A DNA stretch of 64,000 nt. Source: Escherichia coli (GTDB lineage: Bacteria; Pseudomonadota; Gammaproteobacteria; Enterobacterales; Enterobacteriaceae). The notes beneath the pieces were generated by a model that saw nothing but the letters and a program-made list of their open reading frames with translations, was not told where the DNA came from and did no database searches. Of the stretch, positions 23,927-62,793 are shown one piece after another. The position numbers and the translations under genes were made by a program. The stretch lies in the NCBI RefSeq assembly GCF_044324785.1, contig NZ_CP172127.1; one strand, written 5' to 3'. How positions within the stretch are numbered: position 1 is the first letter of the stretch; every line of letters begins with the position of its first letter.

Positions 23927-24370
23927 ATGGTTATTAGTATTCGCCGTTCACGGCATGAGGAAGGGGAGGAACTGGTTGCGATTTGGTGCCGTTCTGTCGA
24001 TGCCACTCACGATTTTTTATCAGCAGAGTATCGGGCCGAGCTGGAAGAGCTGGTGCGTTCCTTCCTGCCGGAAGCACCGTTGTGGGTCGCGGTTAATGAG
24101 CGGGATCAGCCAGTTGGGTTTATGCTGTTAAGTGGGCAGCATATGGATGCGCTTTTTATCGATCCTGATGCACGCGGCTGTGGCGTGGGCCGGATGCTGG
24201 TGGAACATGCGCTCTCGATGGCACCGGAACTGACAACCAATGTTAATGAGCAAAATAAGCAGGCTGTTGGGTTCTATAAGAAGATGGGTTTTAAGGTTAC
24301 GGGACGCTCTGAGGTGGACGATTTGGGGAAACCGTATCCGTTGCTGAATCTGGCGTATGTGGGGGGATAA
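23927..24370 (+). CDS. yjaB: GNAT-family N-acetyltransferase
   Basis: 147-aa ORF with acetyl-CoA binding motif (RGCGVGRMLVEHAL). Confidence 0.85.
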   Translation: MVISIRRSRHEEGEELVAIWCRSVDATHDFLSAEYRAELEELVRSFLPEAPLWVAVNERDQPVGFMLLSGQHMDALFIDPDARGCGVGRMLVEHALSMAPELTTNVNEQNKQAVGFYKKMGFKVTGRSEVDDLGKPYPLLNLAYVGG

Positions 24371-24400
24371 TGCGGATATTTACACTCGCCGCAACTCTTC

Positions 24401-24437
24401 GTAGGTCGGGTAAGACGCGCCTGCGTCGCATCCGGCC
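24401..24437. repeat. REP element between yjaB and the rRNA operon terminators
   Basis: gtaggtcgggtaagacgcgcctgcgtcgcatccggcc. Confidence 0.6.
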
Positions 24438-24454
24438 TTTTTCTGCACCAGCGC

Positions 24455-24483
24455 AAAAAGGCCCAGTCTTCCGACCGGGCCTT
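24455..24483 (-). terminator. rRNA operon distal terminator (T2-like)
   Basis: Reverse complement matches the rrnB T2 hairpin as I recall it; GC stem plus T-tract. Confidence 0.7.
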
Positions 24484-24616
24484 CTGCTTAATTTGATGCC
24501 TGGCAGTTTATGGCGGGCGTCCTGCCCGCCACCCTCCGGGCCGTTGCTTCGCAACGTTCAAATCCGCTCCCGGCGGATTTGTCCTACTCAGGAGAGCGTT
24601 CACCGACAAACAACAG

Positions 24617-24660
24617 ATAAAACAAAAGGCCCAGTCTTTCGACTGAGCCTTTTGTTTTAT
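24617..24660 (-). terminator. rRNA operon terminator T1
   Basis: Reverse complement ataaaacaaaaggctcagtcgaaagactgggccttttgttttat immediately 3' of 5S. Confidence 0.8.
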
Positions 24661-24663
24661 TTG

Positions 24664-24783
24664 ATGCCTGGCAGTTCCCTACTCTCGCATGGGGAGACCC
24701 CACACTACCATCGGCGCTACGGCGTTTCACTTCTGAGTTCGGCATGGGGTCAGGTGGGACCACCGCGCTACGGCCGCCAGGCA
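24664..24783 (-). rRNA. rrfE: 5S ribosomal RNA
   Basis: Reverse complement matches E. coli 5S over 120 nt (TGCCTGGCGGCCGTAGCGCGGTGGTCCCACCTGACCCCATGCCGAACTCAG...). Confidence 0.95.
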
Positions 24784-24875: not shown

Positions 24876-27781
<2,906 letters not shown>

Positions 27782-27974: not shown

Positions 27975-28050
27975 TGGCGTCCCCTAGGGGATTCGAACCC
28001 CTGTTACCGCCGTGAAAGGGCGGTGTCCTGGGCCTCTAGACGAAGGGGAC
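27975..28050 (-). tRNA. gltV: tRNA-Glu(UUC) in the 16S-23S spacer
   Basis: Reverse complement GTCCCCTTCGTCTAGAGGCCCAGGACACCGCCCTTTCACGGCGGTAACAGGGGTTCGAATCCCCTAGGGGACGCCA. Confidence 0.95.
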
Positions 28051-28135: not shown

Positions 28136-29677
<1,542 letters not shown>

Positions 29678-29807
29678 AAAAGTTTGATGCTCAAAGAATT
29701 AAACTTCGTAATGAATTACGTGTTCACTCTTGAGACTTGGTATTCATTTTTCGTCTTGCGACGTTAAGAATCCGTATCTTCGAGTGCCCACACAGATTGT
29801 CTGATAA

Positions 29808-29824
29808 ATTGTTAAAGAGCAGTT
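29808..29824 (-). promoter_or_regulatory. rrn leader boxA antitermination element
   Basis: Reverse complement contains TGCTCTTTAACAATTTA in the 16S leader. Confidence 0.6.
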
Positions 29825-29861
29825 GCGACGCGGCTTTCAGCTCACTATCGCGAGGTGGCGT

Positions 29862-29889
29862 ATATTACGCTTTCCTCTTTAAGAGTCAA
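29862..29889 (-). promoter_or_regulatory. rrn P2 promoter
   Basis: Minus-strand TTGACT(-35) N16 TAATAT(-10). Confidence 0.7.
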
Positions 29890-29972
29890 CCCTGAATTTC
29901 AGGATTTTTTCTCTTCAACCGAACCGGCTGTTTGTGTGAAGTGATTCACATCCGCCGTGTCGATGGAGGCGC

Positions 29973-30060
29973 ATTATAGGGAGTTCTCCGCAGGCCGCAA
30001 TAGAAAAATTGCAGAAAAATGACTGACTGCTGCATTCCCCAGCAAAACCCCGCTTTATAC
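29973..30060 (-). promoter_or_regulatory. rrn P1 promoter with upstream A/T-rich UP element region
   Basis: Minus-strand TTGCGG(-35) N16 TATAAT(-10), with an A/T-rich tract further upstream. Confidence 0.65.
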
Positions 30061-30171
30061 CTTTTTACGCACAGAGTTATCCACAATCATCAATGTAATT
30101 TCTGTATTTTTCCCACGGTAACCACTGTCAAAATTGTGATCACCATTGAAAGAGAAAAATTCGCGAGCGTT

Positions 30172-30187
30172 GCGCAAACGTTTTCGT
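30172..30187. promoter_or_regulatory. PurR operator (pur box) of purHD
   Basis: GCGCAAACGTTTTCGT, close to the palindromic consensus ACGCAAACGTTTGCGT, directly upstream of a TACAAT -10-like hexamer. Confidence 0.65.
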
Positions 30188-30294
30188 TACAATGCGGGCG
30201 AAAAATAAGGATGCCCCGTTAGGGGCGTTAGCTGAGTTTTTCGCGAAAAATTCAGCTAACGCTCTCTGTAATAGTCAAATCCAGGGGATTTACC

Positions 30295-31884
30295 ATGCAA
30301 CAACGTCGTCCAGTCCGCCGCGCTCTGCTCAGTGTTTCTGACAAAGCCGGTATCGTCGAATTCGCCCAGGCACTTTCCGCACGCGGTGTGGAGCTGCTGT
30401 CTACAGGGGGCACTGCCCGTCTGTTAGCAGAAAAAGGTCTGCCGGTAACCGAAGTTTCCGATTACACCGGTTTCCCGGAGATGATGGATGGACGCGTGAA
30501 GACCCTGCATCCGAAAGTACATGGTGGCATTCTGGGCCGTCGCGGCCAGGACGATGCCATTATGGAAGAACATCAGATCCAGCCTATCGATATGGTGGTT
30601 GTTAACCTGTATCCGTTCGCCCAGACCGTTGCCCGTGAAGGCTGCTCACTGGAAGATGCGGTTGAGAACATCGATATCGGCGGCCCAACGATGGTGCGCT
30701 CCGCCGCCAAGAACCATAAAGATGTCGCAATCGTGGTGAAGAGCAGCGACTACGACGCCATTATTAAAGAGATGGATGCCAACGAAGGATCGCTGACGCT
30801 TGCAACCCGTTTCGACCTTGCCATCAAAGCCTTCGAACACACTGCCGCCTACGACAGCATGATTGCGAACTACTTCGGCAGCATGGTTCCGGCTTACCAC
30901 GGTGAAAACAAAGAAGCCGCTGGTCGCTTCCCACGCACGCTGAACCTGAACTTCATTAAGAAGCAGGATATGCGTTACGGCGAGAACAGCCACCAGCAGG
31001 CTGCCTTCTATATAGAAGAGAATGTGAAAGAAGCCTCCGTTGCCACCGCAACCCAGGTTCAGGGTAAAGCCCTCTCTTATAACAACATCGCCGATACCGA
31101 TGCGGCGCTGGAGTGCGTGAAAGAGTTCGCCGAGCCGGCATGTGTGATTGTGAAGCACGCCAACCCTTGCGGCGTGGCTATCGGCCATTCCATTCTTGAT
31201 GCTTACGATCGCGCGTACAAAACCGACCCAACCTCCGCATTCGGCGGCATCATTGCCTTTAACCGCGAGCTGGATGCGGAAACCGCACAGGCCATCATTT
31301 CTCGTCAGTTTGTCGAAGTGATTATTGCGCCTTCCGCCAGCGAAGAAGCCCTGAAAATCACCGCCGCCAAGCAGAACGTACGCGTTCTGACCTGCGGTCA
31401 GTGGGGCGAGCGTGTTCCGGGTCTTGATTTCAAACGTGTTAACGGCGGTCTGCTGGTTCAGGATCGCGATCTGGGCATGGTCGGTGCAGAAGAACTGCGC
31501 GTCGTCACCAAACGTCAGCCGACCGAACAGGAACTGCGTGATGCGTTGTTCTGCTGGAAAGTGGCGAAGTTCGTGAAATCCAACGCCATTGTCTATGCCA
31601 AAAACAATATGACCATCGGTATTGGCGCAGGCCAGATGAGCCGCGTGTACTCCGCAAAAATCGCCGGTATTAAAGCGGCCGATGAAGGCCTGGAAGTGAA
31701 AGGTTCCTCGATGGCTTCTGACGCGTTCTTCCCGTTCCGCGACGGTATTGATGCCGCCGCCGCTGCGGGCGTGACCTGCGTAATCCAGCCTGGCGGTTCT
31801 ATCCGTGATGACGAAGTGATTGCCGCCGCCGACGAGCACGCTATTGCGATGCTCTTCACCGACATGCGCCACTTCCGCCATTAA
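30295..31884 (+). CDS. purH: Bifunctional AICAR transformylase / IMP cyclohydrolase
   Basis: 529-aa [43 protein letters not shown]... Confidence 0.95.
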
Positions 31885-61039: not shown

Positions 61040-61115
61040 TGGTGCTGATAGGCAGATTCGAACTGCCGACCTCACCCTTACCAAGGGTGCGCTCTACCAA
61101 CTGAGCTATATCAGC
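61040..61115 (-). tRNA. thrT: tRNA-Thr(GGU)
   Basis: Reverse complement GCTGATATAGCTCAGTTGGTAGAGCGCACCCTTGGTAAGGGTGAGGTCGGCAGTTCGAATCTGCCTATCAGCACCA. Confidence 0.95.
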
Positions 61116-61121
61116 ACATCT

Positions 61122-61196
<75 letters not shown>

Positions 61197-61312
61197 ATCC
61201 TGGAACTCGGCTACCTGATTTTCATTCTGCACTGAATATCGAGAGAAGCTCTCTTTATTCGAGCCGGTAAGCGAACTTATCGTCTCGGGCTACGCCATCG
61301 CGTGGCCGAAAT

Positions 61313-61397
<85 letters not shown>

Positions 61398-61405
61398 GGA
61401 CTTGA

Positions 61406-61481
<76 letters not shown>

Positions 61482-61842: not shown

Positions 61843-62793
61843 ATGAGTATAAAAGAGCAAACGTTAATGACGCCTTACCTACAGTTTGACCGCAACCAGT
61901 GGGCAGCTCTGCGTGATTCCGTACCTATGACGTTATCGGAAGATGAGATCGCCCGTCTCAAAGGTATTAATGAAGATCTCTCGTTAGAAGAAGTTGCCGA
62001 GATCTATTTACCTCTGTCACGTTTGCTGAACTTCTATATAAGCTCGAATCTGCGCCGTCAGGCAGTTCTGGAACAGTTTCTTGGTACCAACGGGCAACGC
62101 ATTCCTTACATTATCAGTATTGCTGGTAGTGTCGCGGTGGGGAAAAGTACAACCGCCCGTGTATTGCAGGCGCTATTAAGCCGTTGGCCGGAACATCGTC
62201 GTGTTGAACTGATCACTACAGATGGCTTCCTTCACCCTAATCAGGTTCTGAAAGAACGAGGTCTGATGAAGAAGAAAGGCTTCCCGGAATCGTATGATAT
62301 GCATCGCCTGGTGAAGTTTGTTTCCGATCTCAAATCCGGCGTGCCAAACGTTACAGCCCCTGTTTACTCGCATCTTATTTATGATGTGATCCCGGATGGA
62401 GATAAAACGGTTGTTCAGCCTGATATTTTAATTCTTGAAGGGTTAAATGTCTTACAGAGCGGGATGGATTATCCACACGATCCACATCATGTATTTGTTT
62501 CTGATTTTGTAGATTTTTCGATATATGTTGATGCACCGGAAGACTTACTTCAGACGTGGTATATCAACCGTTTCCTGAAATTCCGCGAAGGGGCTTTTAC
62601 AGACCCGGATTCCTATTTTCATAACTACGCGAAATTAACTAAAGAAGAAGCGATTAATACAGCCATGACGTTGTGGAAAGAGATCAACTGGCTGAACTTA
62701 AAGCAAAATATTCTACCTACTCGCGAGCGCGCCAGTTTAATCCTGACGAAAAGTGCTAATCATGCGGTAGAAGAGGTCAGACTACGCAAATAA
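61843..62793 (+). CDS. coaA: Pantothenate kinase (type I)
   Basis: 316 aa from [25 protein letters not shown]...; P-loop GSVAVGKST; ORF track shows an upstream in-frame extension. Confidence 0.95.

Follow-up and report, generated by a model that had tools for sequence, protein, structure and literature searches.

The 617-bp interval at positions 29678–30294 of the window, the 64,000-nucleotide stretch of Escherichia coli DNA analysed in this work, is almost certainly the known divergent control region between purHD and the rRNA operon next to purH, which is rrnE by position. The rrnE–purHD region is known and well studied, and the operon appears intact and ordinary. What is new here is the family-wide conservation of a double DnaA box between the two promoters, together with the pattern of its spacing, and we regard both as a modest lead and not as a discovery. 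Of the protein-binding sites documented between the two promoters, this double DnaA box is the strongest, and it was overlooked by the first-pass annotation. Maps of the region that hold only Fis, the UP element and PurR are therefore out of date, since they lack the very strong DnaA site located between the promoters. The features of the interval and of the adjoining operon are collected in Table 1.

Table 1. Positions in the window of the rrn operon, the divergent control region and the purH leader, with the basis of each assignment
Feature	Position	Strand	Basis or conservation
yjaB	23927–24370	+	beyond the rrnB-type terminator region
5S rRNA	24666–24781	−	full-length Rfam match
23S rRNA	24877–27781	−	full-length Rfam match
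tRNA-Glu(UUC), 16S–23S spacer	27975–28050	− (rrn operon)	ARAGORN
16S rRNA gene	28136–29677	−	full-length Rfam match
16S leader from P1 and P2	29678–29853	−	boxA-to-16S part nearly invariant; 7/7 K-12 rrn leaders
rrn P2 (−35 TTGACT 29889–29884, 16-nt spacer, −10 TAATAT 29867–29862)	29862–29889	−	consensus scan
Footprint: P1, UP element and upstream block	29957–30060		high conservation
rrn P1 core	29964–30000	−	identical to K-12 rrnE P1; conservation 0.9–1.0 in 97 sequences
Putative UP element (−40 to −60 of P1)	30004–30024	−	76% A+T; moderately to highly conserved
Conserved block upstream of the UP element	30025–30060	−	conservation 0.7–1.0 in 97 sequences
Double DnaA box	30065–30085	+	identical to K-12 ChIP-seq site
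Footprint: DnaA boxes	30065–30085		high conservation
Spacer of variable length, non-conserved	30086–30147	.	conservation 0–0.4; unalignable between genera
purHD promoter	30148–30193	+	PUR box, conserved −10, A-tract; cross-species footprint
Footprint: A-tract, PUR box and −10	30148–30193		high conservation
Structured purH 5′ UTR, predicted	30213–30262	+	inverted repeat, RNA fold, cross-lineage folding
Small hairpin AAATCC-AGG-GGATTT over the Shine-Dalgarno region, followed by the purH ATG at 30295	30277–30297	+	
Footprint: purH 5′ UTR leader stems and ribosome-binding region			high conservation

The divergent control region and the rrn operon

The 16S rRNA gene on the minus strand covers the whole of its Rfam model (positions 1–1533 of 1533), and on the plus strand the ORF list gives a 529-aa open reading frame starting at 30295 and then one of 433 aa, which are purH and purD by the K-12 annotation of the equivalent genes. 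With the 16S 5′ end at 29677 and the purH start at 30295, positions 29678–30294 are therefore exactly the 617-bp intergenic region. The first-pass annotation had described minus-strand rrn P1 and P2 promoters and a plus-strand purH promoter with its pur box as sharing this one region, and had named an alignment with the K-12 rrnE upstream sequence as the way to check it. All of these elements were located, and end-to-end alignment with the 614-bp purH–rrsE intergenic region of K-12 MG1655 gave 606 identical columns among 617 (98.2%), with none of the 11 differing columns in the P1 core, the P2 hexamers, boxA, the DnaA boxes, the PUR box or the purH −10. The view of the region as the expected arrangement beside an intact rRNA operon was likewise borne out by the full-length 16S gene and by functional cores identical to those of K-12; it amounts to an annotation sanity check that the rRNA operon beside purH is intact and has normal promoters, and nothing beyond. 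By megablast, 5,409 of 5,426 complete E. coli genomes contain at least 80% of the interval, with 99.7% for the top match and 100% for none.

P1 consists of a near-consensus −35 TTGCGG (30000–29995), a 16-nt spacer, a consensus −10 TATAAT (29978–29973) and the GC-rich discriminator GCGCCTCC (29972–29965), which is invariant across the species compared and is followed by the A at 29964, the putative +1 by homology to rrnB P1. Alignment of the upstream regions of the seven K-12 rrn operons places the P1 core CTCCCTATAATGCGCC and the P2 hexamers in all seven, and upstream of the P1 −35 the sequence becomes operon-specific and the window matches rrnE. P2, the second sigma-70 promoter, lies ~110–120 bp downstream of P1, aligns with the P2 of K-12 rrnE, rrnH and rrnD, and by the same kind of homology would start transcripts near 29854. 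Among the loci listed, 97 distinct sequences of other species conserve both the P1 core and P2. A generic sigma-70 scan of the interval returned one site (P2), against 1.0 expected from shuffles, and missed P1; the promoter calls therefore rest on homology. Upstream of P1, the A+T-rich segment would act as an UP element by analogy with the rrn P1 literature, and the block adjoining it, which is peculiar to rrnE among the seven K-12 rrn operons, fits a predicted Fis site I, expected at about −72 of P1.

The 16S leader read on the minus strand contains a boxB-like hairpin (29851–29825) and boxA TGCTCTTTAACAA (29821–29809), and boxB/boxA leaders have a role in antitermination. The tandem promoters, namely P1, sensitive to growth rate and ppGpp and dependent on the UP element and Fis, and P2, would thus drive the 16S gene through this leader. 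Within 29678–30294, Rfam 15 gave no match at the gathering level. At permissive thresholds the Yersinia ‘sRNA’ family Ysr197 matched 29799–30033 on the minus strand, below its gathering score (111.8 bits vs 167), across P1, P2 and the beginning of the 16S leader. We rejected this match as a separate sRNA gene and read it as rrn-leader homology, and the family itself may have been built on rrn leader transcripts.

The mechanical ORF list also holds a 67-codon ORF on the plus strand at 30019–30222, and it is scarcely credible that this is a real gene inside the intergenic region. The frame runs over the UP element, the DnaA boxes, the indel-rich non-conserved spacer and the PUR box, the spacer inside it differs by 0 to 95 bp between species, and in K-12 nothing is annotated at its position; it was rejected on these grounds.

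In its P2/boxB segment the window is nearer to rrnH and rrnD of K-12 than to the rrnE of that strain, a pattern consistent with exchange among rrn copies. This segment carries two substitutions, 29881 G>T just after the P2 −35 and 29847 C>T in the boxB stem, that never occur together in the 5,426 complete E. coli genomes, among which the best 91-nt match over the region of both reaches 98.9%. The former is also found at rrnD of strain 042, and the latter replaces C-G by U·G at one pair of the boxB stem, which stays paired.

At the other end of the operon, the ~190 nt after the 5S gene are almost the same as the K-12 rrnB T1/T2 terminator region, and unrelated intergenic sequence comes next. 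The rrnE-type upstream region and the rrnB-like terminators together indicate an operon that is of rrnE type at its 5′ end and of rrnB type at its 3′ end, and the window operon thus differs from K-12 rrnE in ending with rrnB-type T1/T2 and without yjaA. The latter gene is not frameshifted, as was considered, but simply absent downstream of the 5S gene (24180–24665, minus strand). The presence or absence of yjaA is a marker in Clermont phylogrouping, and the window probably comes from an ordinary yjaA-negative lineage. As a separate observation, the rrn operon next to purH in E. coli M10 (locus L002) has a tRNA-Ile/tRNA-Ala spacer, whereas the window and K-12 both carry a tRNA-Glu spacer at this operon; strains thus differ in the spacer type at this locus, consistent with recombination among rrn copies.

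The double DnaA box and its spacing across species

The double DnaA box, TTACGCACA-gag-TTATCCACA, combines a 7/9 box and a consensus box with 3 bp between them, and it occupies −101 to −121 relative to the P1 +1 and −135 to −115 relative to the inferred purH start. In a 2024 study, the K-12 purH site showed 124-fold ChIP-seq enrichment, among the strongest in the genome, and ChIP-qPCR of mutants indicated that both boxes and the 2–3-bp spacing are needed for DnaA binding (PMC11317965). Among the seven K-12 rrn upstream regions, a consensus DnaA box occurs at rrnE alone. The 64-kb window holds two exact DnaA boxes vs 0.37 expected, and the second one (TTATCCACA, plus strand) is located at 62469–62477, ~1 kb beyond a four-tRNA cluster at 61043–61481.

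For the cross-species comparison in Enterobacteriaceae and Erwiniaceae, a codon-degenerate pattern of the PurH N-terminus yielded at least 120 loci in species-level genomes. The exact P1 core is present in at least 98 loci, 273–397 bp from the purH ATG, and most contigs among the loci listed end 250–650 bp upstream of purH, as is expected where an assembly breaks at an rrn operon; the divergent purH–rrn arrangement is therefore widespread in the two families. When the DnaA 9-mer was searched for with one Y substitution allowed at positions 2 and 4, a TTATCCACA-like 9-mer was found in 119 of the 121 loci listed, and a second box stands 3 bp upstream of it in nearly all the flanks shown for these 119 loci. 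The footprint in Table 1 was derived from 97 distinct sequences from the loci listed.

The two sides of the double box differ in how their distances behave. Toward the rRNA operon, the DnaA box lies 108 bp from the P1 −10 in 98 of the 99 loci listed. Toward purH, the loci listed group by the interval separating the DnaA box and the PUR box into classes of 44–46 bp (73 loci), 56 bp (one locus), 98–99 bp (seven loci, the window among them), 108–110 bp (33 loci), 120 bp (three loci) and 140 bp (one locus), so that the spacer changes by 0, 11, 54, 64, 75 and 95 bp between species. Of the helical periods tried, from 7 to 15 bp, 10.6 bp fitted these classes best, and the phase concentration at 10.5 bp was R = 0.95 (P about 5e-4 against uniform phases), a post hoc statistic on six length classes that are not phylogenetically independent. 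The spacer sequences are at near-random identity between genera, and this, together with the phased length classes, suggests that the length and not the sequence of the spacer is under selection. In the short form, which most of the loci listed have, the boxes are at about −81 to −61 of the purH start, and in Escherichia they stand five turns further away.

Long spacers in Klebsiella, Raoultella and Kluyvera contain in their middle the motif CTATATAG or TATA(A/T)AGG (loci L029, L068, L043, L057, L115, L077 and L006). The same motif appears again at the expanded apex of the leader hairpin in Pantoea (L012, L053 and L031) and the window lacks it; it may represent a −10-like element or an inserted small palindrome.

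Based on these findings, we tentatively propose that the double DnaA box regulates purH and/or rrnE P1 in a phase-dependent manner, a reading to which we give a minority chance. DnaA bound at the double box would most likely modulate purH and possibly rrnE P1, and both divergent promoters may share the box as a helically phased upstream element. If this is true, DnaA would couple purine synthesis, and perhaps one rRNA operon, to the status of the replication initiator in Enterobacteriaceae and Erwiniaceae.

It is also possible, if on the whole doubtful, that the double box has no transcriptional role and is merely a high-affinity chromosomal site that titrates DnaA. The 2024 study measured binding and not the expression of purH or rrnE (PMC11317965), and a 2025 study described the titration of DnaA by chromosomal boxes enriched near oriC and counted purH in that region (PMC12371093). 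However, a pure titration site would not need fixed and phased spacing, whereas the box, retained in 119 of the 121 loci listed, keeps its 108 bp from the P1 −10 and shifts relative to purH only in ~10.6-bp steps, with the intervening sequence free to drift.

A further alternative, which we consider unlikely, is that the box serves rrnE P1 and not purH, and so links the rRNA operon to the replication initiator. The invariance of the box–P1 distance could be taken in this way, as could the lack of such a box in the other six K-12 rrn upstream regions and the location of the box at −101 to −121 of P1, roughly where site II for Fis falls in rrnB, at about −102. But the invariant distance may be a by-product of constraint on the UP/Fis region in between, the conservation of helical phase points to coupling with purH, and at −81 to −61 of the purH start, its location in most of the species listed, the box would have a position typical of an upstream regulator. 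For phase-dependent regulation of purH and/or rrnE P1 by DnaA, the cross-species spacing pattern offers a prediction, cheap to test, on which of the two, purH or rrnE P1, is a target of DnaA, if either is.

The purHD promoter, its PurR operator and the purH leader

The purHD promoter on the plus strand comprises an A-tract (30150–30161) at an UP-like position, a candidate −35 region GAGCGT (30165–30170), the PUR box GCGCAAACGTTTTCGT (30172–30187) and, directly adjoining it, the near-consensus −10 TACAAT (30188–30193). The very weak −35 leaves the assignment of the promoter to depend on the PUR box, the A-tract and the conserved −10, and no purH entry was found in the TSS supplements searched. 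The PUR box is a 16-bp imperfect palindrome with a central CG that agrees with the PurR consensus ACGCAAACGTTTGCGT at 14 of 16 positions (2 mismatches) and is its sole match at ≤3 mismatches in the 64-kb window. Lying 108–123 bp upstream of the purH ATG, inside the promoter, it abuts the −10; it is nearly invariant, and PUR box and TA(C/A)AAT are contiguous in ~110 distinct sequences from the loci listed. Its reverse complement is the ChIP-chip-supported purH–purD site ACGAAAACGTTTGCGC of K-12, where PurR binding was seen only with adenine added, and PurR sites are generally located between −35 and −10 (PMC3159470). Repression of purHD by RbsR has also been reported (review PMC10912719). Since the operator takes up the −35/−10 spacer and directly adjoins the −10, PurR carrying hypoxanthine or guanine would occupy the spacer up to the −10 and exclude RNA polymerase.

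The statement of the first-pass annotation that the A/T-rich activator region upstream of rrn abuts the PurR operator did not stand. Counted from P1, the UP element is at −40 to −60 and the PUR box at −208 to −223, and the 147-bp gap between the two holds the conserved block, the double DnaA box and the 62-bp non-conserved stretch. The A-tract next to the operator keeps with the purH promoter in every species among the loci listed, whatever the spacer length, and is therefore better read as part of the purH promoter.

It is quite improbable that the P1 activator region, with its UP element and Fis sites, nevertheless reaches the PurR operator and that Fis and PurR binding are physically coupled. 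Such a reach would accommodate the five Fis sites previously assigned to ‘rrnE’ and the formation of more than eight complexes of Fis with a probe of roughly 500 bp described by Maeda et al. (PMC4696680), as well as weak Fis-consensus matches at −170, −191, −197 and −208 of P1, and in the short-spacer species the purH A-tract would come to about −135 to −145 from P1. However, matches at 8/11 arise by chance at 2.8 per 200 bp, and a scan of the interval with the Fis consensus GNNYRWWWWWYRNNC gave no match at 10/11 and 8/11 matches at the background rate. Moreover, the 147 bp separating the UP element from the PUR box include a stretch, 30086–30147, that is non-conserved and variable in length, and the A-tract travels with the purH promoter and not with P1. 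In W3110, the strain of Maeda et al., rrnD and rrnE are exchanged by inversion, which makes their ‘rrnE’ label ambiguous.

From the position of the −10, the purH transcript would start near 30200, giving a 95-nt leader with a long stable hairpin and then a small hairpin over the ribosome-binding site. On the plus strand, hairpin 1, GCCCC-GTTA-GGGGC, is at 30213–30226, and hairpin 2, at 30225–30262, is a 38-nt near-perfect palindrome with 19-nt arms that are 95% complementary; the fold of the leader RNA has a z-score of −4.7. Among close relatives the covariation in hairpin 2 is weak, most pairs being invariant, and one hairpin pair appears as CG, GC and AU, yet is unpaired in 21 sequences. The long hairpin forms at the same place in every lineage folded, with an apex that differs in sequence and length and is wholly different in Pantoea, Erwinia, Mixta, Cedecea, Shimwellia and Tatumella; even in Tatumella, where the sequence is unrelated, a long hairpin still folds at the purH leader position. 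In the small hairpin, all six pairs are invariant in 58 sequences from the loci listed. On these modelled folds, the long purHD leader hairpin may control mRNA stability or translation, and the small one would be expected to affect purH translation. No discussion of a purH leader hairpin was found in the literature searched, and the structured leader, too, is a modest lead and not a discovery.

Several other candidates around the leader were rejected. A terminator-like hairpin on the minus strand (30226–30213) has a trailing T-run that is not conserved, for example in Klebsiella, and makes more sense on the plus strand, as hairpin 1 of the purH leader. A mini-ORF from the ATG at 30211 has an AAGG directly abutting that ATG, and its frame and length are not conserved. 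The permissive Rfam match to mir-725 at 30217–30275 is at chance level (23.8 bits vs a gathering score of 76). An RNase III site in the purH leader was likewise set aside, as the sole purH–rrsE entry in the main-text RNase III table of PMC5371410, at K-12 position 4207874 (~29953 in the window), is assigned there to rrsE.

Comparison with known systems

The closest known counterpart is the K-12 MG1655 purH–rrsE region (NC_000913.3, 4207533–4208146), which has the same flanking genes in the same orientation and is identical to the window in the P1 core, the UP region, the P2 hexamers, boxA, the DnaA boxes, the PUR box, the purH −10 and the leader. Compared with it, the window is 3 bp longer and carries substitutions in the spacer (30126 and 30111), the conserved block (30048), the P2 spacer (29881) and the boxB hairpin (29847 and 29842–29833). 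The K-12 rrnD–yrdA and rrnC–yieP regions likewise have tandem P1 and P2 promoters, an operon-specific upstream region and a divergent neighbour, but beyond the P1 core their upstream regions have no sequence in common with that of the window operon, and neither has a consensus DnaA box within 480 bp.

The purH operator resembles the other PurR operators of the pur regulon in its 16-bp length, its central CG and its position between −35 and −10, and nothing about it is distinctive. Double DnaA boxes, in which the 9-mers are 2–3 bp apart, have been described at polA, DARS2, nrdA and purH, and the window sequence is the same as the published purH site (PMC11317965). Unlike its comparators at polA, DARS2 and nrdA, the purH double box stands between two divergent promoters, one of which is an rRNA P1.
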